Positions 38,672 through 55,360 of a stretch of 64,000 nucleotides of DNA are shown in pieces. A program made the translations under genes and the position numbers. Source of the stretch: Myxococcota bacterium. Its GTDB lineage: Bacteria; Myxococcota_A; UBA796; UBA2385. The notes beneath the pieces were generated by a model that made no database searches, was not told the DNA's origin, and saw only the letters and a list, made by a program, of their open reading frames with translations. The DNA is taken from the NCBI GenBank assembly GCA_044344255.1, contig JBIJDH010000023.1:1-64000 (forward strand). The letters are read 5' to 3'. How positions within the stretch are numbered: position 1 is the stretch's first letter; every line of letters starts with the position of its first letter.

Positions 38672-40695
38672 GGTGTCACCTCGTGGGGGGCGCGGGCTCG
38701 GAAGGCGTCGGTGAGGGTGATGTCGACCATCAGGCCGCGGAGGTCGCCGCCGCTCGCCTGGAAGCGGCTCGAGAGCTCACGCAGGGTGCAGGCGTCCTCG
38801 GCCTCGGCCGCCCTCCCGACCGCGTACTCGAACCAGCGCTGGGCGTAACAGGCGCGGGCGCGGTCGCTGTCGGCGAGGAGGGCGAGGAGCTCGGCGGCGC
38901 CGTCGAATTCGCCCGCAGGGTCGTCGAAGGTGCCGGTGGCGTCGATGGGGATGCCGTCCTCCCAGGTGTCGCGCCACTCGCCGAGGGCCCCATAGTGCTC
39001 GAAGGCGAAGCCGACGGGGTCGATCCGCAGGTGGCAGCCCGAGCAGGCCTCGTCGGTCCAGTGGGCCTCGAGCTGGTCGCGCACGGTGACGATCTCGGTG
39101 TCGGTCTCGGGGAGGGTCGTGCTGACCCCCGGCGGCGGGTCGAGGGACTCGCAGAGGAGCTGCTCGAGCACGAAGGCGCCGCGGCGGACGGGCGCGCTCG
39201 CGCTCGAATAGGCGTGGGCGCTCAGCCAGCCGGCGCGGGTCAGGAGCCCGGGGCGGAGGGCGGGGTCGAGCTCAACCCGGACCCACTCGGCGCCGGGGTC
39301 GGGCAGGCCGTAGAGGGGCGCCAGATCGCTGTTCACCCAGGTGGAGCCCGAGGAGAAGAGCGCGTCGTAGGTGCCGTCGCCGAGCCAGACCACCTCGGTG
39401 GTGAAGAGGTCGGTCTCCGTCTTGAGGCTGGCCACGAGGGCGTCGTCGAAGGCCGGATAACGCGTGCTGTCCTTGGTGGCCGTGTCGAGGGCGTCGAGGT
39501 GCAGCCAGTCCTGGTGGAAACGCGCCACGACCCCGGTCATCGCCGCCCCATTGACGAGGCGGGCGGCCTCGGCGGACACCCCCTCCGGCGTGGAGAGGGC
39601 GCCCGAGGCGGCGGCGGCGCGGAGGGCCTCGTCGGGGAGGTCGTCGGTCATGAAGAAGGCGAGGCGGGCGGCGAGGGTGTCGGGATCGACGGGCACAGGC
39701 TCGGCGGCCAGGCTGGCCTCGGCGGCGCGGGGGTCGATGTAGAGGAGCTGCGGGGACTGGAGCAGCACCTCCACCCCCATTCGCACGGCGGTCTCGGGCT
39801 CGAGCCCGGCGTCGAGGAAGCGGGTGAGCAGGGCCGCCTCGGCCTCGGAGAGGGGCCGCCGGAAGCCCCGGGCCCCGCGGTCGAGCAGGAAGCGCCGGGC
39901 GCAGTCGGCCTCCGCCTCCCCGTCGGCGCAGGCGAGGGCGCTCGGATAGGCGAGGGCGGCGGCGGCGGCCTCCGCGGCGAGCTCGATCGACTCCGCCCCC
40001 GAGCCGGACACGGAATTGGAGGTGGCCCAGGTGCGAAATCCATCGCCCCGCTCGCTCTCCGGATAGAGCCCATCGGGCAGGCTGACCCCGAGCAGGGTCA
40101 ACACGACCTTTTGGAACTGGGTGTCCGTGAGGAGGCGGAGCGGGGCGGTGCCCGGGCGGACGGTGCCGTCGCAGGTGACCGGCAGCGCCACCGGCGAGGC
40201 GCAGCCGCCCGGCACCTGGAGCCGGCCGACGAGCTCGGTCATCACGGCCATCTCGGGGTCGAGGGTGTCGAAGCGCTCCCCGCCTGCGTGGCTGACCTGG
40301 CCGGTGGGCTTCAAGGTGAGGAGCCCGGCGGCGTCTTCATTCTCGGTGACGAAGGCCTGGAGGCGATCCCAATTGGTGGCCTCGGCGCTGGCCTCCCCCG
40401 CGGGGGCGAGCACCATCCGGGTGCCGGCGGCCATTCCCCCCTCGACGTGGCAGGTGAGGCAGTCCGAGAAGAGCGGGTTCGCCTGGGCGGAGAAGAACTC
40501 GGCGTCGGTGACGCAGCTCGGATCGGGATCGCCGCCCCCGTCTGCCTCCGCCCCGTCGTCGCCGTCGGAGGCGCCGTCCGTCGAGGCGGCGCCCCCCTCC
40601 TCTCTCTTCCCGCCGTCGCAGGCGATGAGCAGGGAGAGGGACAGGGAGAGGGACAGGGAGAGGGACAGGGAGAGGAGCGGGCGGGTGTCGGTCAT
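38668..40695 (-). CDS. DUF1592/DUF1588/DUF1595-family c-type cytochrome lipoprotein
   Basis: Lipobox LIAC; CxxCH motifs CLTCH and CSGCH; RRPL...E, LQSP..LY, RLAFF...PD, PVRRG, DP.GFAFEHY. Confidence 0.88.
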   Translation of the reverse strand: MTDTRPLLSLSLSLSLSLSLSLLIACDGGKREEGGAASTDGASDGDDGAEADGGGDPDPSCVTDAEFFSAQANPLFSDCLTCHVEGGMAAGTRMVLAPAGEASAEATNWDRLQAFVTENEDAAGLLTLKPTGQVSHAGGERFDTLDPEMAVMTELVGRLQVPGGCASPVALPVTCDGTVRPGTAPLRLLTDTQFQKVVLTLLGVSLPDGLYPESERGDGFRTWATSNSVSGSGAESIELAAEAAAAALAYPSALACADGEAEADCARRFLLDRGARGFRRPLSEAEAALLTRFLDAGLEPETAVRMGVEVLLQSPQLLYIDPRAAEASLAAEPVPVDPDTLAARLAFFMTDDLPDEALRAAAASGALSTPEGVSAEAARLVNGAAMTGVVARFHQDWLHLDALDTATKDSTRYPAFDDALVASLKTETDLFTTEVVWLGDGTYDALFSSGSTWVNSDLAPLYGLPDPGAEWVRVELDPALRPGLLTRAGWLSAHAYSSASAPVRRGAFVLEQLLCESLDPPPGVSTTLPETDTEIVTVRDQLEAHWTDEACSGCHLRIDPVGFAFEHYGALGEWRDTWEDGIPIDATGTFDDPAGEFDGAAELLALLADSDRARACYAQRWFEYAVGRAAEAEDACTLRELSSRFQASGGDLRGLMVDITLTDAFRARAPHEVTP
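40628..40675. repeat. 12-nt tandem repeat encoding (LS)n in the signal peptide
   Basis: (agggagagggac)n on the + strand, about 4 copies. Confidence 0.85.
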
Positions 40696-42098
40696 GGGGC
40701 CACGCTGGGGGCCGCGTCTTGGAAGCCGGGGCCGTCGTTGTCGGGGAGGATCTCGGTCCAGGTGAAGCCGCCGTCGGTGGAGCGGTGGAGGGAATTGCCG
40801 GAGCGCCCGAAGGCGAGCCGACCCACGGCCGCGATCGGGGTGACGGTGGAGGCGTTCTCGAGGTCCCAGGTGGCGCCGTCCGCCGAGCTCCAGACCTCCG
40901 CGCCGTCGCCGATGAGGAAGCGGTCTCCCGCCCAGATGACGGCGGCCCATTCGGTGTCGCCGAGGGTGGTGGCGCTCCAGCTCCGCCCGCCGTCCAGGCT
41001 CTGCTCGATGCGGCCCCCGGCCCCGACGGCGACGAAGACCCCGTCCCCGAAGGCGATGTGGTCGAGGTCGGTGTCGGCGACGGTGAGGTCGACCGTCCAG
41101 GTGAGGCCGTCTTCGGTCATCGCGCGGCGGTCGGCGCCGACGGCGACGAAGACACCGTCTCCGTAGGCGACGCCGTGCAGCGTGCTGCCGCCGAGGCTCC
41201 CGCCGGACAGCCAGGCGGCGCCGTCGGTGCTGCTGCGGAGCAGGGCGTCGCTGCCCACGACCACGTAGAGTCCGTCTCCCCAGGCGCAGTCGGCCACCCA
41301 GCCCCCGCCGTCCGTGGTCTCGGTCCAGGTGAGGGCGTCGGCGCTCTGCCAGAGGCGCCGCTCGTCGCTCCCGCCCACGCTCAACCAGCCCGCCGAGCCC
41401 GCGCAGGCGCCGCGCTGCAGCGCGTTGGTGTGGGCGACGAGCGTCTCCCAGCCGTCCACGGCCCAGGTCTCACCGTAGTCTGGGGTCATCGTCACCCGCC
41501 GCCCCTCGCCGAAGAAGGCGATGGGCAGGGGGGCGGTGACCTCGGCCGTGAGGGTGAGCGTGTAGGGGGAGCCGGGCTGGTCGTAGGGCAGGACGAAGCT
41601 GCCGCTCACGAGGCCCTCGTCGCCGGGGACAAAGGTGAGGCCGAGCTCGGCGCTCTCCCCGGGCGCGAGGTAGACCGGCGGCAGGGCGTCGAGGCTGAAG
41701 CCCTCGCCGCTGAGCCAGTCGTCGGGGTGGCCGAGGAAGCGCAGCTCGTCGTGCGTGCAGGGGTTGGTGAGCTGGAGGCGGGCGGTGAGCGGGTCAGCCT
41801 GCGCCGGCGTGCGGCCGAGGTCGAAGGAGGCGCCGCTCAAGAGGGGCTCGCCGAGCACGCTCACGGCGAGGGGCTCGGCGCAGGGGGGCGCCGTGTCGTC
41901 GGGGGGCCCGCTGTCCTCGGGGGCGTCGGAGTCGTCGGCGGGGCCGCTGTCCTCGAGATCGGCCACGCCGCTGTCGTAGGCCTCGCCGGTCTCGCCGGCC
42001 CCGTCGGTCGCGCCGCCTGCTTTTGGCCCACCCGCGGCGCCGCCCCCGCAGGCGACGGCGAACGTGAGGGTGAGAGTGAGGAGGGACCCGCCCTTCAT
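40692..42098 (-). CDS. Lipoprotein with an Ig-like domain and a BNR/WD40-like beta-propeller
   Basis: Lipobox AVAC; repeats VAYGDGVFVAVG..., S.DG..W. Confidence 0.8.
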   Translation of the reverse strand: MKGGSLLTLTLTFAVACGGGAAGGPKAGGATDGAGETGEAYDSGVADLEDSGPADDSDAPEDSGPPDDTAPPCAEPLAVSVLGEPLLSGASFDLGRTPAQADPLTARLQLTNPCTHDELRFLGHPDDWLSGEGFSLDALPPVYLAPGESAELGLTFVPGDEGLVSGSFVLPYDQPGSPYTLTLTAEVTAPLPIAFFGEGRRVTMTPDYGETWAVDGWETLVAHTNALQRGACAGSAGWLSVGGSDERRLWQSADALTWTETTDGGGWVADCAWGDGLYVVVGSDALLRSSTDGAAWLSGGSLGGSTLHGVAYGDGVFVAVGADRRAMTEDGLTWTVDLTVADTDLDHIAFGDGVFVAVGAGGRIEQSLDGGRSWSATTLGDTEWAAVIWAGDRFLIGDGAEVWSSADGATWDLENASTVTPIAAVGRLAFGRSGNSLHRSTDGGFTWTEILPDNDGPGFQDAAPSVAP

Positions 42099-43516
42099 CG
42101 CCCCTCCAGCGCCATTGCGCGGATGGTCATCTCGGTGTGGACGGCGGTGTAGACCGTCTCCCAGTCGGCGCCGTCGCGGGAGCGCACGAGCTCGTCGAGC
42201 TCGCTCCAGGGGTGGAGGGCCCCGATGAACCACCCGTTCACAAAGCCGAGGAGCTGCACCGAGTCGTCGTGCACGGCGGTCCAGGTGAGCCCGTCGGTCG
42301 AGGCCCACACGCCGTCGCAGCTGTTCGAGACGCCGCCCGCCAGCCAGAGGCCGTCCCCCCAGGCGACAGACTCCATCCGGGTGTATTGGGAGTCACACCA
42401 GGACTGGTCGGTCCAAGTCAGTCCGTCGTCTGCGGAGCGACTGACGGTGTATCGCTCACCGCCCCAGCCGCCCACTGCCACGAGCGTGCCGTCGTCGGAG
42501 CGGGCGAGGTCGCTGAGATAGTCTCCATCGGCGAAGTTGTCTTCGGTGGCCCAGGAGCTGCCGTCCGTGGAGGTCACGCGGCGGCCGTTGCGGCCGGTGG
42601 CCACGAAGCGCTCGCCCGTGTAGAGCACCGACAGGAGCATGTCGTCCCATTGGGTAGACTCGTGGAGCACGGTCTCGCCGGAGTCTGACCAGGAGATGGT
42701 GTCGGAGCGCACGCAGAAGAACTGGCCCATCCCGTAGGCGCAGTCGCTCACCCAGAAGTCGTCGGAGGCGGCGGAGGCGGTCCAGGTGGTGCCGTCCTCG
42801 CTCCACTGGTAGTGGCCGGCCACAGACCAGGAGAAGCCCTCTTGGGAGGCGAGGAAGAAGCGCCCCTCTCCCCAGGTGACCGTGTGGACGGCGTCCTGGA
42901 TCTCGGTGGGCTCCACCGTGGCCGACCAGGTGGCGCCGTAATCTTCGCTCAGGAGCACGGTGGGCCCATCACCGGCGACGACGAGGCGGAGGGGGCGGGG
43001 CACGCTCGCCCGGAGCGAGACCGCGAGCGGGGGCTCGGTGGGGACGGAGAGCGTGCCCGCCCGCGACTCGGCGGCGGTGGCGTCGACGGGGTTGACCGCG
43101 ATCTCGAAGGGGGCGCTCTCGTCGGGCTCGAGGTGCTCGGGGAGGGGCCCGCTGGCCGTGAAGCCCTCGCCGGACAGCCAGAGGGAGGGGTCCGCCGGCA
43201 GGGTCAGGGCCTCGCCGCTGCGGTTGGTGAGCGTGAAGCGGAGGACGCTCGCCTCGTCGATGCCGGCGGGCGCGGTCTCAATGGAGACGGCCGCCCCGTC
43301 GGAGAGCACCGCGCCCTCGTAGACGAGGGTGACCCCGGGGCTCCAGTCGACCTCGGTCTCGGGCCAGACTGAGGCGGTGTCGTCCCCGTCGTCGGGCTCT
43401 CCGGTGTCCCCGGCGGTGTCCCCGCCCGATGGGGCGGGACCCGAGCCCGCCGCGCCTCCGTTTGGCTTCGATGAAGCGGCACAGGCCGCGAGCAGGAGGG
43501 GAAGGGTCCAGCGCAA
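42095..43516 (-). CDS. Paralogue of the adjacent Ig-like plus beta-propeller lipoprotein
   Basis: Lipobox LAAC; shared WLSGEGF...LP..L.P.ESA and S.DG..W repeats. Confidence 0.8.
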   Translation of the reverse strand: MRWTLPLLLAACAASSKPNGGAAGSGPAPSGGDTAGDTGEPDDGDDTASVWPETEVDWSPGVTLVYEGAVLSDGAAVSIETAPAGIDEASVLRFTLTNRSGEALTLPADPSLWLSGEGFTASGPLPEHLEPDESAPFEIAVNPVDATAAESRAGTLSVPTEPPLAVSLRASVPRPLRLVVAGDGPTVLLSEDYGATWSATVEPTEIQDAVHTVTWGEGRFFLASQEGFSWSVAGHYQWSEDGTTWTASAASDDFWVSDCAYGMGQFFCVRSDTISWSDSGETVLHESTQWDDMLLSVLYTGERFVATGRNGRRVTSTDGSSWATEDNFADGDYLSDLARSDDGTLVAVGGWGGERYTVSRSADDGLTWTDQSWCDSQYTRMESVAWGDGLWLAGGVSNSCDGVWASTDGLTWTAVHDDSVQLLGFVNGWFIGALHPWSELDELVRSRDGADWETVYTAVHTEMTIRAMALEGR

Positions 43517-43532
43517 GGCGGCTCCGTCAGGG

Positions 43533-43985
43533 TCAGAGGGGGATGCCCACCCGACGATAGATGAATTGGAGCAGCCAGGCGGGCCCGACGAGCAGGAATT
43601 GAAGGTCTTGGAAGAAGGACGGCTTCTTCCCCTCGATCTTGTGGCCGATGAACTGCGCCACCCAGGCGGTGAAGAAGACTCCCGCCGAGACCCAGCCGAT
43701 CGGCAACACGCTGGCGATGAGCGTGTTGATCGAGAGCATGATGACGGCGCCCAGCGCCATCCCGAGGGCGAGGGTCCAGGACAGCGAGGCGTAGAAGATC
43801 ATCGTGAGGCCCGCGCCCACGACCCCCCAGTGCAGGCCGCTCTCACCGAAGGGATGGGGGATGGCGGCGCAGAGACCGAGCGTGGACAAGGCGATCGGGG
43901 GGATGAATACCCAGTGGATGAGCTTGTTCGTGGGGTTCCGGTGAGACTCCCCGTAGAGGCTGAACCACTCCTCGGCGCTGCGCAT
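43533..43985 (-). CDS. DUF962/Mpo1-like membrane protein
   Basis: Y.ESH.NP.N..IH...P.I; W..QFIGH.IEGKKPSF..D...LL.GP. Confidence 0.92.
   Translation of the reverse strand: MRSAEEWFSLYGESHRNPTNKLIHWVFIPPIALSTLGLCAAIPHPFGESGLHWGVVGAGLTMIFYASLSWTLALGMALGAVIMLSINTLIASVLPIGWVSAGVFFTAWVAQFIGHKIEGKKPSFFQDLQFLLVGPAWLLQFIYRRVGIPL
43889..43962. repeat. Left copy of a 74-bp direct repeat (inside the 5' end of the DUF962 gene)
   Basis: 65/74 identical, ungapped, to 51275-51348 by manual alignment. Confidence 0.9.
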
Positions 43986-44052
43986 GCCTACACCTCCCCC
44001 CGTGACCGTCCTGCGAACCGGAGACTACCCCGCGCTGGGCGGCCGGCGCGGG

Positions 44053-44937
44053 TCACCGCTGGAGGGCCCGATCGAGGTCTTGCAGGCCCGCGTGCAGAGA
44101 GGCGCGGATCTTTACCTTGGCGAAGGGATTGTCGTCGATCTCCCGGAGGACCGGGTCTCCCTCGAGGGCCGTGCGGTAGCCTCTGATCAAGGCCATGCAG
44201 CGCTCGAGGGCCGCCGTCTGGGCGCTCGGCTCGCTGGCGCCCGCGAGCGCGTCGAGGGCGCCGATCAGGCGGTCGTCGAAGGCGCCCATCTTCCAGCCGA
44301 CCTTCTTGATCTCCCCGGCGGCCGCTCGCATCTCGGGGTCCGCCCGCACCTCGGGGTCGGAGTAGATGGCCTTCAAGAGCTTGTCGAATTCGCTGCTCGC
44401 GGTGGTCCGGGCCGAGGTCCAGACCATCTTCGAGCGGTTGATCGCCACCGGGGTGGGGAGGGCCGGATTCGAGGTGTCCGGATGTTGGTCTTCGGAGGAC
44501 CCCCCGGTAGAGGGAGCCTCCTCGGGCCCGGCCTCCTCGCTCTCCTCCTCGCTCTCCTCCTCGGTGAAGAGGGCCTTGTCGATGAGCTGGGCGGCGTAGT
44601 CGAGGCCGATGGCCTTCGCACCGAGCTTCCAGGCCTTGACGAAGGCGGCCTGGAGGAGCTTGGGGCCGATGCAGCGCTTGAGGTCGGCCACGACGCGGAG
44701 CGTAGCCCCTTCGAGGCTCACCTGACCCACCACGACCGCAGTGCCCTGGAAACCCTCCACCGACTTCTTGAGGCCGGCTAAAACCTTCGCGGCGTTCGGA
44801 GCGTCTTGCCGCTTCTTGTAAAACCAGATCAAGGGATCTGGAGCCGCCACGAGCGCGAACTGGATCGGCGCTTGTTTGGCGAGCGGCCAGATGGCGAGCA
44901 GGGCTTTCTTTTGGTCTACCGTGACCTTGATGGGCAT
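44053..44937 (-). CDS. Hypothetical two-domain cytoplasmic protein with an acidic linker and a helical C-terminal domain (W...R...IDDNPF)
   Basis: Clean ORF, GGAG RBS, no signal peptide; divergent from the giant ORF. Confidence 0.75.
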   Translation of the reverse strand: MPIKVTVDQKKALLAIWPLAKQAPIQFALVAAPDPLIWFYKKRQDAPNAAKVLAGLKKSVEGFQGTAVVVGQVSLEGATLRVVADLKRCIGPKLLQAAFVKAWKLGAKAIGLDYAAQLIDKALFTEEESEEESEEAGPEEAPSTGGSSEDQHPDTSNPALPTPVAINRSKMVWTSARTTASSEFDKLLKAIYSDPEVRADPEMRAAAGEIKKVGWKMGAFDDRLIGALDALAGASEPSAQTAALERCMALIRGYRTALEGDPVLREIDDNPFAKVKIRASLHAGLQDLDRALQR

Positions 44938-45084
44938 CGATCTTCTCCGGGGGCGGACGATACATCAGCGGCCGCCGACGAACAAGGCCCGCTGCTGGCC
45001 GGTGAGCGGCCTTGAGCAACGCGCTTGACAGAGCGGGTGGAATTGCCGAACCTGCGGTCGCCCATCCCTGGCGAGGACACACGA

Positions 45085-48000
45085 TTGGACTCGGAAACGA
45101 CGAGATCGAAGAAGAAGACTTCCCCGAAACTTGCCTTTCTCCGCCTCCTCACGCGAGGCGGCGGGGGAGGCGGTGGGGGAGACAAGGAGCCGACCTCGTC
45201 GGAGAGCTCCGGCAGCGAGGCCATCGACCTCGGGCCGGGCCTGGCGGCGGCGCGGGAGAAGCTCGGCGAGCTCGACATCACCCTCCTCGCGTGGGAGCAG
45301 GGCGGCTTCGGCGAGGGCTGGAAGGCCCTCCGCCTGCGTCACGGGCAGTTCGCCAAGGCCCTCGAGCAGGTGGCGGACGCCAAGGATCGGGTCGCCGCCC
45401 AGAAGGCGCTGCTCCAGGTCACGCGGGGCATCTCGGAGGCTGCGGGGAGCGCCGCCGACACGCTGGACCGCTGGAAGCGCTGGGATCGCTCGTCCAAGCA
45501 GCTCGAGCCGCTGGTCACCGCCGCGCTCAAGCGGGGGGCCGGCGAGGTCCAGAAGATCCGCTCCACCTGGGCCCTCGCCGGCGAGAAGGCGGAGGCGGGC
45601 GATCCGGTGGAGGCGCTGTCGCTGTTGTCTCCTCTCATCCTGCTCATCCGGGAGGCGGACAAGGCGGAGAAGACGCAGGTTCAGGAGGAGACCGCCGGCA
45701 TGGTCGACATGGACCAGACCAAGGTCCAGCTTCTGACGGCGAAGTGGAATTCCCTTTGGGGGAAGATGGCCCCCCTCGTCCAGAGCACCCTCGAGAAGGG
45801 CATCGCCGAGCGGACCCGCCTTGAGGCCACCTGGGCTTTCGCCCACGAGAAGGCCGAGCTCGGACAGCAGACCGGCAGCGTGGCCGACCTCACCCTCGCG
45901 CTGCAGACCCTGGTCGAGGTCAAGAAGATCATCGACAACGCCGTGGTGGACGAGACGGTCCCCAAGGGCACCGTCGTCAAGGCGAAGCAGCTCCTCGAGG
46001 GCGAGTCCGAAGGCAAGCGGGTCCACGCGCTCCTCCTGTCCACCCGGTCCACCGCCACCAAGGTGAGCACGCGGTTGACTAAGGCCTTCGAGCCGAAGAC
46101 CCCCGAGGCCATCGAGAAGCAGATCGAGAAGATCGACAAGCTGCTGTACACGGGCAGCGAGGCCGATCTCGAGAAGCTGGAGAAGGCCGCTACAGATGCC
46201 GCCGAGGAGATCGTCAAGCTCGAAGAGCTTGCACGGCAGCCCCTCATCGACAAGGGGCGCTGGGAGAAGGATGTCGCGCTCTTCAAGGCCCGCCTGGTTT
46301 CGCTCACCAATCACAAAGCAGCGAATGGGAAGATGGTCAAGCCCCTCGTCAAAGGGGTCACCGACGGTCTCGATGCCGCCGAGCTGAAGGCGACCGCGCT
46401 CACCTGGGCGCTGGCGAGCCAGGATCTGCCGGCGCTGTACCTCCGCTGTGACGAGGTCGAAAAGCAGGCCGACAGCATCGCGGAGCTCATCGCCGTCCAG
46501 GCGGATCGGAAGGAGCGCCTGGCCAGCCTGCCCGATGTCGGGACGATCGCGCACGATGTCCCGAAGGAGGCCGTAAAGGCGGCACTGAAGCTCATGAAGG
46601 ACGGAGGTGTAGAGGCCCAGGCTGGCCGCTACGACGCCGCCAAGGTGCTCTACAACAAGATCCCCGAGGCGGTGGCGCTCGCCCAGGACCTCGTCGGATT
46701 GGCGGCAATGTATGCGGTGGATTACCCTGTCGCCGTCCAGGATGTGATCAACATCGCGGCCTGGGATCAGGCGGTGAAGGACGAGATCGTGGCCGAGCAG
46801 GCCAGCCACAAGAAGCTCGTGGAAGACGCCGACTTCGACAAGACGAAGAGCTTCGCCCTCTCGACGCGGAAGCTGCGGGACGCCAATGGTTTTGTCTCCC
46901 TCCTGGTCGGCCGTCGGAAGCAGATCACCGCCTGGCTGAGCCGGCTCAAGGAATTCGACCTCCGCCTCAAGGCGGTCAAGGAGCACAAAGGGCGGATCGC
47001 GATCGAGGAGCACTTCGCGCGTCTGACCTCGGACCGGGTCTTCGCCTTGAAGAAGGTCACCGAGAAGGACTTCTACGCCGCCGAGAAGGTCCTCGCCGCC
47101 TCCGAGGGTGAACAGACCGCGAAGCTGGCGCTGGCCGATATCGGCGAGGATTATATCGGCAAGAAGAAGAAGCTCGACGAGGATATCGACAAGGTCCTGA
47201 AGGCCAAGAACGGCAGCCTGGCCGCGACCTTCATCACCGACGCCCGGGCGCATATCTCCGCGGGGGAGGCCATGAAGACCGCCGGCCAGTGGCCCGAAGC
47301 GGTCAAGTGCCTGGAGCAGGCCGCCGCCCGGGTGACGCTGGCCGAGAAGGTCCTCGGCGAAGACAAAGGCCTCAAGGACCTCAAGGACGATGGCAAGCTC
47401 GACAATATCGCGACAGACTTCCCCGCCGCCTATGATGTCTATGAGAAGATGCTGTCCCATGTCCAGGGAAAGGACGACGGCACCTTCGCCACCCCCCTCA
47501 AAGCCGCGACCGCGGCGGGTAAAAGGGCCGAGGAAGCCGCGAAGAAGGAGACCCCGGATTATGGAGCGGCGCGGATCGCGCTCGACCAGGCGATGAAGGT
47601 CTGCGAAGACGTGCTCGTGCTGATCACAAGAAAACCTGCCTATGATTCGAACCGGTCCGCCGTCGTCACCGCCCATGGGACCACGCTCCCGCCCCTCAAT
47701 GACGAAAACTGTATCGACCAGTTGATCCAGGACATCGGGGCCGCCCTCGACCTCGCCGCCGAGCTCGCAAAGTCGCCCGTCTTCAACTATGCCGAGGCAG
47801 AAGGCAAGCTGTCCGAGGCCCAGAACCTGGTCGCGAAGGCGAAGGTGAACGCGGAGGCCTGGAAGACGGCGAAGCCCGATGTCAAGACCATCCAGGAGAC
47901 CCACAAGTATATCAGCACGCCCATTCGGAAAAAGGGAATGGGAGCAGAGGTCGCCCGTCTTGAGAAGATCGGGGAAAAGATGGAAGAGCTGGTCAAGAAG

Positions 48001-50499
48001 GGGGATATGCCCGCCCTCGTCAAGGAGGCCGCGATCGGCGTCGCGCTTTGCGCCCCCTTCCGTCTCGCGGCGGATGCCTATGTAAAGGCGATGGCCGATG
48101 TAAAGACATTCATCACCGATCGACGGGCGAGCATCGAGGGCAATCCGATCAGCGATCCCGAGCTCACAGAGCTGAAGGCGGTGGACAAACAGATAGAGGA
48201 GGCCTTCAAGGCCCATGCCTTCGCCGTCGCCGCAGCGCTGGCCGCCTCTGGATTCTGGGTGATCGACGCGGGCGAGCAGGCCATCGCGGAGCACAAGCTC
48301 TACGAAGTGGAGCGGGTGAAGGCGGAGGACAAGGTCAAGGAGGTGGAGCTCATCTCCAACCTGGGCGTGCTCGACCAGGTGCAGGCGCTGCGCTCCCGGT
48401 ACAAGGCGGTCCTCGACATGGCGGGGGCCCGCAACTTCCCCCGCGCCAAGAAGATGGCGGAGTCGATCCCCGGGGACGCCGATCTCATCCCTCCCCTCGC
48501 GACAGCCTACAAAGAGTGTAAAGCCGCGCGCGACACCGCCGGCAAGGCGCTGGAGAAGGCCGAAGGGCACAAGAACGCCCTCGCCATCGCGCCGCTGGTC
48601 ACCAAACTGAAGGCACGCTTCGAGGTCGCAAACAAGCTGGAGCTCGGCGGCGACCGTGTCGCGGCGAAAAAGATCTTTGAGGAGCTGGCCACAGAGTGCG
48701 CCGACGCCCTCCTCGTCGCCGGCGACCATGATCAGACCCTCGATCTCGCTCGAACAGCCAAGGAGAACGGCTCTCCCTCCAATGAGCAGGTGGTGGAGGC
48801 CCGCGAGAAGGCCGAGCTGATTCGAAACAAACACCTCGAGGAGCCCGAGGCGCTCTATGTCATCGGGCCCATGACACGGGCCCATACGCTGCTCAAGGAG
48901 TCCGACGAGCTGCACAAAGGGGGCAAGTCAGCCGAGGCGCTCCAGAAGATCGGGGCCGCCCTCGAAGAGCTTGCCGCCGCACGAATCGGGATGGGACATT
49001 ATAAACAGATGGAGGCGGAGGCCAAGAGCGTTCGAAAGGCGATTGACGATCTGCTCGGGAGCCACGCACAGGCCGACTTCATTCGCCCCGACTGCGAGCG
49101 GCTGCAGGAGGGTGTGGACAAGGCCATTCAGAAGGCCCGCACCGATGGTGCCCACGAGGTCGCCTCGAAGTCCCTGGCCGACATCGACCAGTCCGTGCAT
49201 CGCCTCAAGGGGGTGGCGACCGCCCATGTCGCCTATCTGAAGGAGCGGGATGAGCTCTCCCCGGGTGTGGCGCTGTTGGAGAAACACGCGCACCGATATG
49301 CCGCCGCCACCGAGCTCAAGGATCTCCGTAAGCACCTCGCCACCGCCTCCCAGAAGGCGGATGCCCACGATCACAAAGACGCCATGGTGCTGCTCAGCGG
49401 CGCGGGACGCGCCTACGAGGCCGCCCAGCTCAAGGTGAAGATGGCCGGCAACGAGGCGCCGGGTGTGGACGATGTCCAGGCGATCCTCAAACGACCGGGG
49501 GGGGAGAAACACCTCGATAAAATCGTCGCGGGCCTCGAGCCCAGCGCCCAGCGAAAGGTGCTTCGGGCGGCGATGGAGGCCCGTTTCGGCTGCAAGCTCA
49601 ATGTCTTCCCAAACAAGGTGATGGAGGACGAATACCGAGAGTGGATCCAGGACAATCCGGACGCCAGCGAAATCGAAAAGAAGAACAAGCTCGCCGCTTG
49701 CACAGAGTCGGATGGGAACCTGAAAGGCCCCAACCTCCGCCGTTTCTACGATGTCATGTCTGACCTCCCCGACACCCACACCAAGGAGAATGACAGCATG
49801 CAGGTCTTCTCTGAGGTGAGCGGACCGGCGAAGGGCTCCGCCTACAACACAGGGCGGAAGGAGGTCATGATGCGGGAGGGCGCTTTCCAGAAGAGCGGCG
49901 ACTATCTCATCGCTCAGGAGCACGAGATCGAGGCTCCCGATCCCGAGTGTACGCCCGTCCCAGGCAGGGATCTGAGCTACTTCGACTGGAACACGCTGCA
50001 TGAGGTCGGCCACGCGGTGGACGACAAGCACAACTTCATGAAACGGAACGGAAAGACCCTCGCAGGCTGGGAGGATTACGGAAACAACGTGCTCCCCATC
50101 GCGACGGCCATCGCGAAGAAACACAAATACGACGCGGGCTATATCACCGCCTACATGGGTGGAGAGGCAAAACCCGCGATCCCCGAGCCGGTGGACTGCG
50201 ACGCCGATGAGTGGGAGCGGCGGCGGGTGATCTGCCGGTTGTGGGTGGATAACGCCCGGTTCGGCAAGGACCCCTGGTCAAGCGCCGCATCCGCCAAGGC
50301 GCTCGAGATCGAAGGGGTCGTCTACCACGAGAGCTACGAGAACAGCTGGTCGAGCTACCCCCTGGCCGAACGCGCAAAGGGGGTGAGCGGCTACCAGTTC
50401 CGGGCCCCCGGCGAGTGGTTTGCCGAGCTCTACGCCGCCTACCACAGCGGCAAGATGAACCCCTCCCACCCCGCCCGTTCCTGGCTGGCCGACCTGTAG
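45085..50499 (+). CDS. Giant (~1800 aa) alpha-helical repeat protein with a C-terminal HEXXH...E zinc-metallopeptidase-like domain
   Basis: Ala/Lys/Glu-rich helical repeats; TLHEVGHAVD (CAT at 49999) and GEWFAELY (~50413). TTG 45085 has GAGGA upstream; ORF-track start is 45025. No signal peptide. Confidence 0.8.
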   Translation: MDSETTRSKKKTSPKLAFLRLLTRGGGGGGGGDKEPTSSESSGSEAIDLGPGLAAAREKLGELDITLLAWEQGGFGEGWKALRLRHGQFAKALEQVADAKDRVAAQKALLQVTRGISEAAGSAADTLDRWKRWDRSSKQLEPLVTAALKRGAGEVQKIRSTWALAGEKAEAGDPVEALSLLSPLILLIREADKAEKTQVQEETAGMVDMDQTKVQLLTAKWNSLWGKMAPLVQSTLEKGIAERTRLEATWAFAHEKAELGQQTGSVADLTLALQTLVEVKKIIDNAVVDETVPKGTVVKAKQLLEGESEGKRVHALLLSTRSTATKVSTRLTKAFEPKTPEAIEKQIEKIDKLLYTGSEADLEKLEKAATDAAEEIVKLEELARQPLIDKGRWEKDVALFKARLVSLTNHKAANGKMVKPLVKGVTDGLDAAELKATALTWALASQDLPALYLRCDEVEKQADSIAELIAVQADRKERLASLPDVGTIAHDVPKEAVKAALKLMKDGGVEAQAGRYDAAKVLYNKIPEAVALAQDLVGLAAMYAVDYPVAVQDVINIAAWDQAVKDEIVAEQASHKKLVEDADFDKTKSFALSTRKLRDANGFVSLLVGRRKQITAWLSRLKEFDLRLKAVKEHKGRIAIEEHFARLTSDRVFALKKVTEKDFYAAEKVLAASEGEQTAKLALADIGEDYIGKKKKLDEDIDKVLKAKNGSLAATFITDARAHISAGEAMKTAGQWPEAVKCLEQAAARVTLAEKVLGEDKGLKDLKDDGKLDNIATDFPAAYDVYEKMLSHVQGKDDGTFATPLKAATAAGKRAEEAAKKETPDYGAARIALDQAMKVCEDVLVLITRKPAYDSNRSAVVTAHGTTLPPLNDENCIDQLIQDIGAALDLAAELAKSPVFNYAEAEGKLSEAQNLVAKAKVNAEAWKTAKPDVKTIQETHKYISTPIRKKGMGAEVARLEKIGEKMEELVKKGDMPALVKEAAIGVALCAPFRLAADAYVKAMADVKTFITDRRASIEGNPISDPELTELKAVDKQIEEAFKAHAFAVAAALAASGFWVIDAGEQAIAEHKLYEVERVKAEDKVKEVELISNLGVLDQVQALRSRYKAVLDMAGARNFPRAKKMAESIPGDADLIPPLATAYKECKAARDTAGKALEKAEGHKNALAIAPLVTKLKARFEVANKLELGGDRVAAKKIFEELATECADALLVAGDHDQTLDLARTAKENGSPSNEQVVEAREKAELIRNKHLEEPEALYVIGPMTRAHTLLKESDELHKGGKSAEALQKIGAALEELAAARIGMGHYKQMEAEAKSVRKAIDDLLGSHAQADFIRPDCERLQEGVDKAIQKARTDGAHEVASKSLADIDQSVHRLKGVATAHVAYLKERDELSPGVALLEKHAHRYAAATELKDLRKHLATASQKADAHDHKDAMVLLSGAGRAYEAAQLKVKMAGNEAPGVDDVQAILKRPGGEKHLDKIVAGLEPSAQRKVLRAAMEARFGCKLNVFPNKVMEDEYREWIQDNPDASEIEKKNKLAACTESDGNLKGPNLRRFYDVMSDLPDTHTKENDSMQVFSEVSGPAKGSAYNTGRKEVMMREGAFQKSGDYLIAQEHEIEAPDPECTPVPGRDLSYFDWNTLHEVGHAVDDKHNFMKRNGKTLAGWEDYGNNVLPIATAIAKKHKYDAGYITAYMGGEAKPAIPEPVDCDADEWERRRVICRLWVDNARFGKDPWSSAASAKALEIEGVVYHESYENSWSSYPLAERAKGVSGYQFRAPGEWFAELYAAYHSGKMNPSHPARSWLADL

Positions 50500-50518
50500 T
50501 CCGCCTGGAGGCTCCAAT

Positions 50519-51217
50519 ATGTCTCTCTTCCGTCCCATGAATGTCCAGTGCCCGAAGTGCGACGCCATCGTCAACATGAGCGCCGTGGGCAGCGTAAACG
50601 CGGATCGGCGCGCCGATCTGCGGGCCGCCATCCTCGCCGACACCTTCCAGGACACCACCTGCGAGGCCTGCGGCAACGTCTGTCGCCTCCCGCCCGAATT
50701 CAACTACCTCGACGTCGGCCGGGGTCAGTGGCTCGCCAGCCTGTCGGCCGACCGTCTCCCTGACTTCCTGGAGGCCGAAGACGAGGCGCAGGCGGCCTTT
50801 GACGCCTCCTACGGCAAGAACGCATCGCCTGCGGCCCGCGAGATCGGGGAGGGCCTCGCCGCCCGGGTGACCTTCGGCTGGCCAGCCCTCCGGGAGAAGC
50901 TCCTGATCCGCGAGCAGGGCCTCGACGACGTCGTCGTGGAGATGGTCAAGCTCGAGCTCTTCCGGCGGCTCCCCGACGCCAGCCTCTCCCCGGGGGTCGA
51001 GCTCCGCCTCCTCGATGGGGCAGGCGACCTCCTCGTCTTCGGCTGGGTCGAGTCGGACTCCGAGGAGGTGCGGCAGGAGCTGCGGGTGCGGCGCGACCTC
51101 TACGACACCATCGCCGCTGACGCCGAGGGCTGGAAGGGGGTCCGCGCCAGGCTGACGGACGGCCCCTTCGTCGACATACAGAAGCTCGTCTTTGGCGAGG
51201 GTCGCCCGAGCGCCTGA
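50519..51217 (+). CDS. CpXC-domain (zinc-ribbon) protein
   Basis: CPKC...SVNAD....L..AI......CEACG.......YLD; R..FG...LREK; GGAGG RBS; 19 nt after the giant ORF. Confidence 0.8.
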   Translation: MSLFRPMNVQCPKCDAIVNMSAVGSVNADRRADLRAAILADTFQDTTCEACGNVCRLPPEFNYLDVGRGQWLASLSADRLPDFLEAEDEAQAAFDASYGKNASPAAREIGEGLAARVTFGWPALREKLLIREQGLDDVVVEMVKLELFRRLPDASLSPGVELRLLDGAGDLLVFGWVESDSEEVRQELRVRRDLYDTIAADAEGWKGVRARLTDGPFVDIQKLVFGEGRPSA

Positions 51218-51274
51218 GGCACCCTGTCGGAGCGCAGGCAGAAGAGCGGGCCCATCCTGTAGGCGCAGTCGTCC

Positions 51275-51348
51275 AGGCGATCGGGGGGATGAACACCCCG
51301 TGGATGAGCCTGTTCGTGGGGTCCTGATGAGCCTCCCCGGCGAGGCTG
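51275..51348 (-). pseudogene. Degenerate duplicated fragment of the DUF962 5' end (right copy of the 74-bp repeat)
   Basis: Translates SLAGEAHQDPTNRLIHGVFIPPIA vs SLYGESHRNPTNKLIHWVFIPPIA. Confidence 0.85.
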
Positions 51349-51361
51349 GCACGGCGCGTGC
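51347..51361 (+). promoter_or_regulatory. Putative sigma54 (-24/-12) promoter
   Basis: TGGCACG-gcgc-GTGC with exact GG-N10-GC spacing, ~90 nt upstream of the hemerythrin gene. Confidence 0.55.
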
Positions 51362-51451
51362 GGTGTCCTGCGCCGCCCCCTCTCTTTTTGGCTCTCTTGG
51401 GCGAGCGGGCCCATCCCCCGGGGAACCCCATCCCCCAAGGAACGAGGAACG

Positions 51452-52717
51452 ATGTCTGTCCCCCCCGCACCCGCGCCCATAGACCCCGACGAGACGCTCG
51501 GCCTCGTCGCGCGGATCCTCGACACCCACCACGCCCTCCTGCGGCAAGAGCTCCCGCGACTGGGGGAGGCCCTCCGCGGTCGAGATCGCGGGCTGGTGGG
51601 CCCCTTCGTCGAGCTGCGCGCGCTCCTCGAGGCCCACCTTTGGAAGGAGGAGGTCATCCTCTTCCCAGCGATCCAAGCGCTCGCGCGGGGAGAGGCCGGA
51701 GGCGGCTGCGGCGTGGAGGCGCCCATTCGACAGATGAGCTTCGAGCACGAGAAGATCCGAGAGCTGGAAGAGGTGTTGCGGGGAGCGGCCTCGCTCGCCG
51801 GCGCCGAGGCGGGTGCGCTCGTCGCCCTGCTCGACGATCTGGCCGTCCACGCCCGCACCGAAGATGAAGCGCTCTTCCCCGCCGCGCTCTCCTTGGCCGC
51901 GAGCGGCGTGGAGGTGAGCCCCCCCGAGGCGCCGGCCGAGCCCCCGTCGGCGCCCAGAACGAAGACCCTGCCTCCCCCCATCGCCGTGCCGGACAGCCCC
52001 TTCTCGCTCCGCCACCTCGGCTGGAGCGGGCTCGAGCTCCGCCACGGGGGGCTCCGCCTCTCGGTCGATCCCCCGGAGCCGGTCGAGGGGCCGATCGCCC
52101 TCTCCTGGTCCGAGCAGGAGCGCGTCCGGGGCGCTCGGGCCAGCCGTGGGCCCTTCGCGGCGGCCCAGCCCATCCTGTCCTGGCTGGCGCTCCACGGCAT
52201 GCCCCTCGAGGAGGGACGCGCCGTGCCCTTCGGCGGCTGGATGGTGTCGGTGAAGGCGTACCGGCCGATCCCGTACGCCACAGCCCCCGAGGCCGCGCGA
52301 AAGGTGCTCTCCGGGCTCCGCTCCCCTGCGGTCGCGGCCGGCCGCCTCGCCTTCACGCTCCGCCGTCCGAGCGCCCTGCCCCTCGCGCTCCGCCTCGATG
52401 TCCACGGGCGCCGGGCCGTCCTCCTCGGTCAAGCGCTCCACCGCTTCCTCACCCCCGAGGAGCACAGGGCCCTCGTCACCTGGGCGGGGCGGGCCGACCT
52501 CGTCGTCGCGGGCACCGACTACGACGACGAGGCTGCGACCGGCTCGCTCCTCGCGGCCTTTGATGCGGGCGAGCGCGTCATCGCCGACCTCACCGGGCAG
52601 GTGCGACGCGCCCTCCATTTGCCCGTCCGGACCCTCGATCATGCCCTCGCGGCCGCTCCAACGGGCACGCATGGCCTCTCCGCTGGGAGCGGGGTCGGCG
52701 GCCCCTTAGCCGGCTGA
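51452..52717 (+). CDS. Ric/YtfE-like hemerythrin domain fused to a degenerate MBL-like domain
   Basis: HH..LR.ELP.L, H..KEE.ILFP, PI..M..EH, H...E...LFP; C-terminal LRHLGWSG.EL...LRLSVDP resembles an MBL N-terminus but lacks HxHxDH. Confidence 0.7.
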   Translation: MSVPPAPAPIDPDETLGLVARILDTHHALLRQELPRLGEALRGRDRGLVGPFVELRALLEAHLWKEEVILFPAIQALARGEAGGGCGVEAPIRQMSFEHEKIRELEEVLRGAASLAGAEAGALVALLDDLAVHARTEDEALFPAALSLAASGVEVSPPEAPAEPPSAPRTKTLPPPIAVPDSPFSLRHLGWSGLELRHGGLRLSVDPPEPVEGPIALSWSEQERVRGARASRGPFAAAQPILSWLALHGMPLEEGRAVPFGGWMVSVKAYRPIPYATAPEAARKVLSGLRSPAVAAGRLAFTLRRPSALPLALRLDVHGRRAVLLGQALHRFLTPEEHRALVTWAGRADLVVAGTDYDDEAATGSLLAAFDAGERVIADLTGQVRRALHLPVRTLDHALAAAPTGTHGLSAGSGVGGPLAG

Positions 52718-52771
52718 CGAGGGCCCCGGCATGGGGCGGGGGCTCCGGCATTTGACGGAGGGCGCGGTCGC

Positions 52772-53440
52772 TCAGGCCCCCGTGCGCAGGTCCACGGTGA
52801 TGACCACCTCGTCTCGGATGAGGTCGTCGGGCTTGCCGGGGAAGGCGATGCCGAAGTCCTGGCGGTTGATGACGAACTCGGTCTTCACGGTGGCCGCGCC
52901 GGCACCCGCGGTGATCTTCGCGGGCACCTCGAGGCGCTTGGTGACGCCGTGGAGCGTCAGATCGCCGATGATCGTGCTGTTGGCGCCCTCGAGCTTGGAG
53001 TCGGCGGGGGCGCCGGCCTTGATCTCGGTCGAGACGAAGGTGGCCGAGGGGAAGGCGGCGACGTTGAAGAAGTCGGGGCTCTGGAGGTGGCCGTCGAGCT
53101 TGGCCGAGTCGGTCTTCACGGTGGAGACGTTCACCTCGACGCGGCCGCCGGTCAGCTTGTCGCCGTCTACGGAGAGGCTCCCTGTCCAGCCGCCGAAGGT
53201 GCCGGTGTGAGACTTGGTGATCTTCGCCCCGACGAAGCCCACGGAGCCGACGGCCGCGAGGGCCGTGCCCGGGAAGGAGGGCGTCGCGGCGGCCGGCGCC
53301 GCGGCGGAGGGAGCGGCCGGAGTGGCCGGAGCGGCGGGCGCGGCGGCCGGCGGGGCCTCGCTCACCTTGGCGGCGGACTTGTCCTCGGCGGGGTTGGCGC
53401 AGGCGAGAGCGAGACAAGACAGGAGGGCGATACGGTACAA
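52772..53440 (-). CDS. YceI-family lipoprotein
   Basis: Lipobox ALAC; H.G.F...G, D.HL.S.DFF.V..FP.A.F.S, GDLTLHGVTK, INRQDFGI. Confidence 0.92.
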   Translation of the reverse strand: MYRIALLSCLALACANPAEDKSAAKVSEAPPAAAPAAPATPAAPSAAAPAAATPSFPGTALAAVGSVGFVGAKITKSHTGTFGGWTGSLSVDGDKLTGGRVEVNVSTVKTDSAKLDGHLQSPDFFNVAAFPSATFVSTEIKAGAPADSKLEGANSTIIGDLTLHGVTKRLEVPAKITAGAGAATVKTEFVINRQDFGIAFPGKPDDLIRDEVVITVDLRTGA

Positions 53441-53484
53441 GGGGGCTCCAGGTGACGGTGACCCGGGTTGCTAGCCCAAGAACG

Positions 53485-53540
53485 GGCCGAGCGCACGCCG
53501 GTCGAGCGCAGGCCGGTCGAGCGCAGGCTGGCCGAGGGCC
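53485..53540. repeat. 15-nt tandem repeat (about 3.5 copies) in a divergent intergenic region
   Basis: ggccgagcgcacgcc / ggtcgagcgcaggcc / ggtcgagcgcaggct / ggccgagggcc. Confidence 0.8.
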
Positions 53541-53602
53541 GGCGCGGGCGATCACCGGGGGACGTGATAAGGTGGCCTCGGCGAAATTCCGAGAGGCCCC
53601 CC

Positions 53603-54814
53603 ATGCCCGACGTCACCCAGCGTTCCACCACGACGACCACCGCGCGCACCACCTCCGGTGGCAGCAGCACCGCCTCGGGGGGCCGCACCGGCGCCGGGGA
53701 GCGGGGCAACGCCGCGGCGCAGGACGACCTGCGCGCCGGTGCCAAGCCGCGGGTGGTGGCCTATCTCACGCAGAACAGCACCACGCACCAGAACGACGAG
53801 ATCCCCGAGACGCTCGCCGCCCTCCAGAAGGCCGATCAGAGCGGCCTCGGAAAGAAGAGCCTGATCCCGATCTCGGATCCCTACGCCGACGGCCACGAGA
53901 CCGACGGCTACACCTTCGGGTCGGCCAACAAGGACAAGCTCGGCTGGTGGCAGGGGGACCCCTCCCTTCAGCCCGGCCAGGCCAAGCTCGGCGCCGAGAC
54001 GCTGACCCTCGGCGTCGACGACCCCACCGGCAGCTCCGAGGAGGCCGTGAAGATCGGCGCTGACTGGTCGAAGGCCCTCCTCGCCCTCGGCATGGACGCC
54101 GCCACCACCGGTCGTGTCGTGGCCGCCCTCTTCAAAGACTCCGACGGCAACCCGAAGCTCTACGCTTCGGGCGGTCGGGCCTGTAACGAGCTCATGCAGA
54201 TGGTCTATGTGCTCTATCGGGCCGAACAGGGTGAGTTTGAGCTCAGCGGCATCGTGCTCTCGGGGCACCACTACTCCGGCACGGACTACCTGTTCGGGGA
54301 GAGCGCGCCGCACGAGTACGACACGAAGGACAGCTTCAATTTTCATGACCTCGAGGCCCTGAAGCCGGTCTTCCCGAAGGCCTTCGCTGATGTTGACAGC
54401 GTACAGTTCTCGGCCTGCAACACCCACGACATCGCGATGAACGACGCGCAAGGTAACGAGCAGTCCACCGGCGACTGGGTGAAGAACACCTTCCCCAACT
54501 CGGAGAGCTCGGCCTGGTGGTCGGGCATCGCGCCTGGCTCGGACATGGCCTCCTTCTTCTCGGGTGAGTTCGCCCTCGACCAGGCCAAGAAGGAGAAGGG
54601 GGACAGCGCCGCGTTTGGCGACGCCCTCTTCCGACAGACCAGCAAGGGGGAGTTCCATCGCGGTCAGACGGGCGCCGACGGCAAGATGGCCGAGACCCCC
54701 CTCCAGAAGAACGGGAGCTCCTACAGCTACAACGACTACAAGGGGCTGCGGAACTCGAACGGGCAGGCCTTCCACAAGCGCCCTGACCTGATGAAGTACG
54801 TCCACCAGAAGTAG
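53603..54814 (+). CDS. Hypothetical protein with a low-complexity N-terminus (GNAAAQ) and a possible caspase-fold His/Cys peptidase domain
   Basis: GAGG RBS; IVLSGHH and VQFSACNT motifs; no signal peptide. Confidence 0.7.
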   Translation: MPDVTQRSTTTTTARTTSGGSSTASGGRTGAGERGNAAAQDDLRAGAKPRVVAYLTQNSTTHQNDEIPETLAALQKADQSGLGKKSLIPISDPYADGHETDGYTFGSANKDKLGWWQGDPSLQPGQAKLGAETLTLGVDDPTGSSEEAVKIGADWSKALLALGMDAATTGRVVAALFKDSDGNPKLYASGGRACNELMQMVYVLYRAEQGEFELSGIVLSGHHYSGTDYLFGESAPHEYDTKDSFNFHDLEALKPVFPKAFADVDSVQFSACNTHDIAMNDAQGNEQSTGDWVKNTFPNSESSAWWSGIAPGSDMASFFSGEFALDQAKKEKGDSAAFGDALFRQTSKGEFHRGQTGADGKMAETPLQKNGSSYSYNDYKGLRNSNGQAFHKRPDLMKYVHQK

Positions 54815-54820
54815 TCGGGC

Positions 54821-55234: not shown

Positions 55235-55360
55235 CGGAGCCGGGCGCAGAGGGAGATCTGCGGGCCGGACAGCGCCTGTCCGCCCTCCCTGGACCCGACC
55301 GGCTAGGAGACAGGGGCTCACCCGTTGAGCGTCGTCCCCCGCGCGGGGTGGAGAGGCGGA

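Follow-up and report, generated by a model that had tools for sequence, protein, structure and literature searches.

What would a giant protein that ends in a protease domain like that of anthrax lethal factor (LF) do in a bacterium with no detectable type VI secretion system (T6SS)? The question is raised by a three-gene block in the window, that is, the whole analysed stretch of 64,000 nucleotides (contig JBIJDH010000023.1, assembly GCA_044344255.1), which belongs to a Myxococcota bacterium. The host genome (8.2 Mb, 71% GC, 95% complete) has been found in lake and river metagenomes, and no RNA dataset is among those listed as holding it. The block comprises a divergent gene, a gene for a giant protein with a C-terminal zincin domain and a gene of the CpXC family, and all three open reading frames (ORFs) lie, with their motifs, where an initial annotation made from the sequence had placed them. 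On balance, the three genes probably form a module of adaptor, cargo and partner that serves a contractile injection system. Its main features are as follows.

44053-44937, minus strand: divergent ORF, 294 aa, candidate loading adaptor (N-domain match at aa ~18-135, acidic linker, helical D domain at aa ~166-294)
45025-50499, plus strand: giant ORF, 1824 aa counted from the first TTG at 45025
45085-50499, plus strand: giant protein from its best start, the TTG at 45085 with AGGA upstream, 1804 aa; candidate cargo with the amphipathic N-terminal motif KLAFLRLL, a stalk rich in Ala/Lys/Leu/Glu and a C-terminal zincin
49399-50499, plus strand: predicted zincin domain, LF/PPEP-like (AF2 model, VIA-align, residue conservation)
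49999-50013, plus strand: HExxH zincin motif (HEVGH)
50392-50427, plus strand: distal zincin motif Tyr-x6-Glu-x3-Glu, YQFRAPGEWFAE, YQFRAPGE(W)FAE
50507-50511, plus strand: GGAGG, ribosome-binding site of the CpXC gene
50519-51217, plus strand: CpXC gene, 232 aa (PF14353, E 3.5e-19)

The start of the giant gene is uncertain because its first 176 nt hold no in-frame ATG, and its end lies 19 nt before the start of CpXC. Of the three window proteins CpXC alone has a Pfam family match, and none of them, the divergent protein included, matched NCBIfam or PADLOC (PADLOC: 0 families, E<=0.01). No strongly hydrophobic 19-residue window occurs in any of them by Kyte-Doolittle hydropathy alone (maxima 1.6, 1.3 and 1.0), which is consistent, as far as hydropathy windows go, with the earlier statement that the giant has no signal peptide.

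The protease domain of the giant protein

The giant ends in what modelling and conservation show to be an intact lethal-factor-like zinc protease domain, and proteolysis is predicted. Its C-terminal ~350 aa were modelled by AlphaFold2 (AF2) with a pLDDT of 92.3, and the best match of the model in VIA-align is the catalytic domain of LF (1yqy; Z 9.5, root-mean-square deviation (rmsd) 3.7, 163 aligned). The next matches in the wide structure search are PPEP-3 (Z 7.8) and PPEP-2 (Z 7.0), and chains of LF, PPEP or EF type fill 8 of its 11 top rows. The active site of LF is made of the HExxH helix, a distal Glu ligand and a catalytic Tyr. The zincin profile aligns HExxH and Tyr-x6-Glu to the LF motifs with the same spacing, weakly (E 0.068), and the residues are near-invariant among 168 paired sequences (His 163, Glu 162, His 162, Tyr 166, Glu 166, the misses being mostly gaps). 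The zincin or lethal-factor-like domain that the initial annotation had proposed is supported. Other searches returned little: Foldseek with the zincin model found nothing at E<=0.001, phmmer with the single domain found 0 matches in PDB, and Pfam ATLF (PF07737) did not match the window zincin at E<=1, short of its curated cut-off. ATLF gave a weak match in 8 of 61 zincin homologues (best E 0.0017), and a Pfam scan of 62 zincin representatives gave no match.

The zincin family comprises 1,384 clusters at 50% identity, and in the homologues the domain stands at the C-terminus of proteins of ~240 to 2,080 aa with varied N-termini. The giant itself has 283 homologues (1003-3192 aa), and much of the stalk is covered in the alignments of the 120 listed, at ~25-39%. 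What stays constant among zincin homologues is the protease, with variation in the N-terminus and the stalk; the expected swapping of C-terminal toxin domains behind one stalk is not supported, in a search which was anchored on the protease and in which stalks with other tips could not appear. The description of the stalk as helical repeats stands in part, as BLASTP self-comparison of the giant found no internal repeat and 'helical' rests on composition.

CpXC, the partner gene

CpXC is the fixed partner of the zincin, as is shown genetically, that is, by linkage only. Among the best 80 of 221 genome loci it lies directly after the zincin in 78, and the remaining two are cut off by the end of a contig; the same order is found in all 73 metagenome loci with at least 300 nt of room (of the best 80 of 170). 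Likewise, in an unbiased sample of 301 genomes from the family that holds Leisingera sp. ANG1 (Rhodobacteraceae), the zincin and CpXC profiles were found in the same 17 genomes, with 18 adjacent copies each. Gene neighbourhoods support the pairing. The converse is looser: a clear zincin match is present in 14 of 20 fetched CpXC loci of the host order, so some CpXC genes are not linked to a zincin. The identities of the two proteins correlate at 0.89, which reflects co-inheritance only, and in a coevolution analysis with 154 paired sequences (effective number 90) the inter-protein pairs were scattered, with no mispaired control.

The window CpXC scores 69.4 bits against PF14353 (cut-off 25.4), carries two CxxC pairs and extends ~90 C-terminal residues past the Pfam model. 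The four Cys are invariant in 62 aligned CpXC sequences, which share the motifs SVNADRRP and RxTFGW, and further invariant polar residues are R30, R116, E126, K127, E141 and K144. The AF2 model (pLDDT 92.7) reached a best Z of 4.6 in the wide fold search, which named no family, and nothing in Foldseek at E<=0.001. No CpXC function, no zincin-CpXC pair and no description of the N-domain treated below was found in the literature, in a search that most subscription papers lay outside; the main text of bioRxiv 2021.10.07.463556 (supplements excluded) has no mention of CpXC, and a CpXC match in PMC11090510 is an unrelated motif.

The pairing with the zincin is likely the first role for this orphan family. 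That CpXC acts as an immunity protein or inhibitor, which would restrain the protease in the producing cell, is slightly favoured, by inference; a folding or loading chaperone is somewhat unlikely. The roles could also be reversed, with CpXC as the active or co-delivered part and the zincin as its processing or carrier protease, in the manner of the releasing peptidases of polymorphic toxins. CpXC is indeed more conserved than the protease (mean identity 45% vs 37%), has invariant polar residues and no known fold, and is ~99% identical across the allele swap described below. Moreover, metallopeptidases are among the releasing peptidases in toxins of Photorhabdus virulence cassettes (PVC) (Zhang 2012, PMC3482391). 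Such a reversal is nevertheless improbable, as releasing peptidases lie on the N-terminal side of a toxin domain and the window zincin is C-terminal. Furthermore, in four loci of the host order (L020, L021, L022, L029) the HExxH protein and CpXC are separated by a small gene, which is often lipoprotein-like, and the order adaptor-cargo-small gene matches the effector-then-immunity order of the RIX triads discussed at the end. The small gene could be a second, periplasmic partner. In a same-family genome (L014:14595-14981, minus strand) a DUF4280 gene, which we take to be PAAR-like, directly follows the zincin-CpXC pair.

The N-domain and the T6SS in Rhodobacteraceae

An unannotated domain of ~120 aa, here the N-domain, opens 40 of 71 complete giants. 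It is present in 36 of the 301 genomes, with up to 14 matches each, and 35 of these 36 have a T6SS subtype with a second long TssC-like gene that is found in 39 of the 301. The carriers of the zincin-CpXC pair follow the same distribution: of 50 carrier genomes picked out of the 80 loci, 48 have TssC, and in the unbiased sample 16 of 17 carriers have it vs 83 of 301 genomes overall, all 16 having the same subtype. Fisher values for this association are tiny but overstated because kin are not independent. The tssA/B/C/hcp genes lie within 10 kb in 9 of 80 loci. N-domain carriers end in a WHH nuclease (E 5.7e-9), a VanY-like peptidase (E 1.8e-5), the zincin or a helical domain, here the D domain; the N-domain is found in fusion with cargo as well as on stand-alone N+D proteins. 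No Pfam or NCBIfam match to MIX, FIX, RIX, PIX or WHIX was found on the N-domain proteins tested, the presence of all five models in the libraries being uncertain.

By this association, the N-domain is shown to be a marker of a protein class tied to one T6SS subtype; the class as a whole is polymorphic, and such a distribution is what a T6SS delivery marker would show. The non-Sec delivery suggested for the giant at the outset gains support from the same association with injection systems.

It may be argued that N-domain proteins, the adaptor included, are accessory or structural parts of the T6SS subtype and that the giant is a non-toxic appendage of it. In many genomes an N-domain gene does lie ~2.4-3.5 kb from tssC and divergent from tssA-B-C, and most N-domain C-termini have no enzyme annotation. 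This is highly improbable, however, given that up to 14 matches are scattered in a genome with unrelated C-termini (the WHH nuclease and the VanY-like peptidase among them) and that the active site of the protease is conserved.

An intracellular protease switch for defence or programmed death is another alternative, in which the stalk would sense a trigger and the zincin would cleave CpXC or a host protein with no export. The lack of a hydrophobic export signal, the tight coupling of the two genes, their patchy distribution and the existence of carriers without a T6SS (this host and G049) are in its favour. It would leave the T6SS co-occurrence and the fusions to the N-domain and to eCIS_core (see below) unexplained, and it is quite improbable, since the three window proteins have no PADLOC match and the 59 neighbour clusters found in at least 3 of the 80 loci include no defence genes, as far as Pfam or inspection by eye could name them.

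Some further observations concern the N-domain class itself. The second long TssC-like gene of the T6SS subtype has open frames of ~570-2000 aa; one genome (G296, L127-L128, G296:C1:926000-965999) also has a second long TssB-like gene, with N-domain genes divergent from tssA. The N-domain heads a recurrent family of 1,160-1,360 aa with a shared C-terminal motif (L125-L164), an apolipoprotein-like helical family, the WHH nuclease (L138) and the VanY-like peptidase (L135).

The divergent gene and proposed loading in trans

The divergent gene resembles, in sequence, a stand-alone N-domain followed by a helical D platform. Its D domain, which ends in IDDNPF, was recovered by a profile built from 12 other loci (48.7 bits, E 2.7e-16), and the N profile scored 14.5 bits in a search of seven proteins. 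In ESM Atlas the divergent protein and the N-domain matched only unnamed clusters (scores 0.83 or lower). BLASTP had found 3 homologues and weak matches in 4 of 80 loci, and the lack of co-occurrence that this implied was overturned by the profiles. Of the 72 zincins that lack an N-domain and have room upstream, 8, with that of the window among them, have a D gene immediately upstream, and a further 13 have one at another place in their locus ('elsewhere'); both counts are 0 for the 44 N-fused zincins, among which one locus was entered twice (L044 = L164). Two further upstream cases (L184, L234) were left out for want of room. D genes precede other cargos too: a long ORF comes after 17 of 39, and many of these ORFs start with an amphipathic motif. 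That motif, which KLAFLRLL of the window giant fits, begins 58 of 121 N-less giants, 0 of 66 N-fused giants and 3 of 468 background proteins. Hence the D-profile match and the D genes upstream of N-less zincins support the inclusion of the divergent gene in the system. Its head-to-head orientation with the giant occurs in the window only, in no other locus examined.

The adaptor assignment has its weaknesses. Among 71,375 host ORFs the divergent protein ranks first with the N profile at an E of only 1.9, hhalign gives a probability of 5.8% against the N-domain, and an iterated N profile did not recover it. The D gene is absent from the fetched flank of 51 of the 72 N-less zincins. The counts are not independent, as in nine cases the D gene counted as 'elsewhere' is the one that belongs to the T6SS cluster and many N-less giants form one clade, and the pattern for the amphipathic motif was written after the sequences were viewed.

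Two alleles at one locus

A 17,704-nt contig from a related strain (run X20) spans 40682-56000 of the window and carries a second allele of the giant, in which two parts are distinguished.

45085-46317, plus strand: constant N-terminal part, aa 1-411, 98% identical between alleles
46318-50343, plus strand: segment that varies between alleles, aa 412-1753, with identities of 66% in the stalk and 77% in the protease body (P0002, P0277)

The flanks, the adaptor and the last 51 aa of the giant (100%) are near-identical between the alleles, and the window CpXC is 98.7-99.6% identical to the cluster members P0285, P0287 and P0288. Although the stalks diverge by 34%, neither allele is truncated and the motifs are intact in both. 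The structure resembles an exchange of alleles under conflict and speaks against decay. One CpXC appears to serve two protease alleles, as the sequences show.

The host: origin and delivery route

In a quick tree the window zincin falls among giants of Rhodobacterales and Pirellula (SH-aLRT 97), well apart from the paralogue that the host has. On this tree, which shows neither donor nor direction, the module was probably acquired horizontally by a host without a T6SS, as the initial annotation had supposed. Its further claim that the block was inserted as a unit has only the flanking remnant and the tree on its side, as no empty site was found: no flank synteny was shared in 11 short loci from 5 relatives, and no convincing contig joint across the block was seen in 4 runs (36 further joints lie outside this reading).

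The host has a second zincin-CpXC pair (G000:C83:262844-266074, minus strand), whose zincin protein of 846 aa bears a lineage-specific N-terminal module. The module recurs on 4 proteins of G003 and on 3 of G036, and as a candidate homologue of the divergent protein or the N-domain it was rejected (hhalign 0.6%, no sequence link). An extracellular contractile injection system (eCIS)-like cluster is present (G000:C52:235382-259721) with Pvc16, an eCIS_core gene and genes like those for sheath, tube and baseplate (named by eye). Pvc16 was found in 40 of 41 genomes of the host order, and in two of its loci (L018, L019) an HExxH protein headed by eCIS_core lies upstream of CpXC. A type III route was rejected, the only FHIPEP gene of the host adjoining a flagellar cluster. 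Stand-alone short genes that match the C-terminal part of VgrG (G000:C64:75704-77149 and C83:44754-45017, both minus strand) lie away from the eCIS cluster.

The resident eCIS is the most likely route in this host; it is put forward tentatively and is the weakest step of the proposal. Alternatively, the cassette could be a stranded acquisition from a T6SS-bearing donor, never delivered, and either kept because CpXC protects against the proteases of neighbours or left to drift. The absence of a detectable T6SS, the place of the window zincin in the tree and the decayed duplicate flank described below would all suit a stranded cassette. Its probability is nonetheless low: both alleles are full-length with intact motifs at 34% stalk divergence, the host has a second zincin-CpXC pair, and the relatives G003 and G012, also without a T6SS, have their own pairs of D gene and cargo.

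Flanks, composition and neighbouring genes

Two features flank the block.

43533-43985, minus strand: intact Mpo1-like (DUF962) gene, left flank, outside the system (PF06127, E 7.2e-19)
51225-51348, no strand assigned: decayed, internally deleted and chimeric copy of the left flank, 124 nt, 42700-42746 joined to 43882-43962

The remnant joins 47 nt from 42700-42746 (91%) to 81 nt from 43882-43962 (85%). The block had been described as bracketed by a duplicated DUF962 fragment; on the left this is an intact gene, and the right side alone is a remnant. The block was also described as A-rich, and its GC of 0.653 is as low in only 1.4% of 2,219 genomic 7-kb windows. The GC content at third codon positions of the giant (0.855), however, is ordinary, being as low in 25% of 2,919 long ORFs; the A-richness hence comes mostly from a protein rich in Ala/Lys/Glu, and composition says little on origin.

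The neighbours to the right are ordinary: a hemerythrin-domain gene (51452-52717, plus strand), a YceI gene (52772-53440, minus strand) and an SbcD/SbcC-like pair (55325-60453, plus strand; named by eye). Between them, an ORF of 403 aa (53603-54814, plus strand) with a Ser/Thr/Gly-rich N-terminus has no Pfam or NCBIfam match and no paralogue; its N-terminus presumably resembles the leaders of eCIS cargo.

Proposed mechanism

The mechanism is built on the observed fold, residues, linkage, co-occurrence and allele structure, from which binding, secretion, toxicity and the route in the host would follow. Giants with no fused N-domain, that of the window included, would be loaded in trans: the D domain of the adaptor may grip the N-terminal amphipathic helix of the cargo, and its N-domain may dock on the injection machine, by analogy with RIX adaptors. 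A contractile injection system would then deliver the giant, and the zincin would cut a target protein in a rival bacterium or a microbial eukaryote, with CpXC binding and restraining the protease in the producing cell. In this host the module, horizontally acquired and kept intact in two alleles, would use the resident eCIS. A wider form of the proposal is unlikely, namely that one hitherto undescribed loading grammar, with the N-domain either fused or on a D-platform adaptor that holds an amphipathic helix at the cargo's N-terminus, serves a T6SS subtype of Rhodobacteraceae, is re-used by an eCIS of one T6SS-less lineage, and delivers more than 1,000 clusters (at 50% identity) of LF-like proteases checked by a new-fold CpXC that covers several alleles.

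Besides the points raised above on the adaptor and the higher conservation of CpXC, several observations weigh against this mechanism. The host has no TssC match, and tblastn with TssA/B/C/E/F/G/K/M/Hcp from three T6SS loci gave no match, only generic ClpB-like, OmpA-like, kinase and VgrG-fragment hits; TssC is present in 1 of 41 genomes of the host order. The window giant lacks eCIS_core (DUF4157), the eCIS cluster is on another contig (C52), and CpXC falls within eCIS loci in 0 of 734 counts in the table of Geller 2021 (12 of 15 supplement files). CpXC is nearly unchanged across a swap that leaves the proteases 77% identical, unlike an allele-specific immunity protein. Of 30 N-domain proteins scanned, 8 have any Pfam match, three of them enzyme-like. 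Finally, the complete chromosome record of G049 (L044) holds an intact N-fused giant with CpXC and has no TssC, Pvc16 or VgrG match, although a plasmid could be missing from the record.

Comparison with known systems

Several consequences follow for known families. The orphan CpXC family gains a concrete partner, and about 1,380 clusters at 50% identity are defined as one LF-like protease family that had no annotation. With the N-domain as a sequence marker, candidate T6SS cargo can be listed across roseobacters, including the cultured Leisingera, Sulfitobacter and Pseudooceanicola, for which no paper on effector markers was found. A host without a T6SS raises the question of cargo moving between T6SS and eCIS.

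The protease domain shares HExxH and the distal Tyr-x6-Glu with the LF catalytic domain and with PPEP-2/3 (PDB 1yqy, 9g0j, 6fpc). It differs from them in sequence (~15% identity, with 145-163 of 366 residues aligned at an rmsd of 3.4-3.7), no other parts of LF are seen, and the shared fold gives no substrate. Tox-ALFMPTase of PVC/eCIS toxins, reported in delta-proteobacteria, likewise places an LF-like HExxH domain at the C-terminus of the cargo (Zhang 2012, PMC3482391), and the eCIS_core-plus-zincin layout of L018 is similar. However, Tox-ALFMPTase is listed in that source with delivery by PVC or the type II secretion system and with Imm-SuFu immunity, and CpXC does not occur in the first 300,000 of its 357,715 characters (operon supplement excluded). 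The window protein, moreover, is without eCIS_core, and its homologues reach ATLF weakly.

As in classical polymorphic toxins, an adjacent downstream partner gene tracks the putative toxin, by genetic linkage only. The RIX triads of the Vibrio T6SS consist of adaptor, effector and immunity protein with functions shown by experiment; the cargo is bound via its first ~25 residues, and the delivery domain is also fused to polymorphic toxins (Kanarek 2023, PMC10435454). The present module is alike in its putative delivery-domain protein with a C-terminal loading platform, followed by cargo and a partner gene. It differs in that no sequence link is shown (no RIX profile was compared), the hosts are others and the module functions are inferred; further, the window cargo is a protein of 1,800 aa that bears an LF-like zincin, its adaptor gene runs divergently and the host lacks a T6SS. 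The MIX binary module VP1388-VP1390 is also a three-gene unit in which a delivery-domain co-effector loads a separate toxin, although its effector targets the periplasm (Dar 2022, PMC8728615), and a MIX domain was not detected here (no Pfam or NCBIfam match). Co-occurrence with the T6SS, a feature of both RIX and MIX, holds in Rhodobacteraceae (48/50, and 16/17 vs 83/301) and not in this host, and the candidate delivery domain is both fused and stand-alone, as in those systems, with a weak N match in the window adaptor. The module as a whole would work like the known adaptor-effector-partner systems and is built from undescribed parts.

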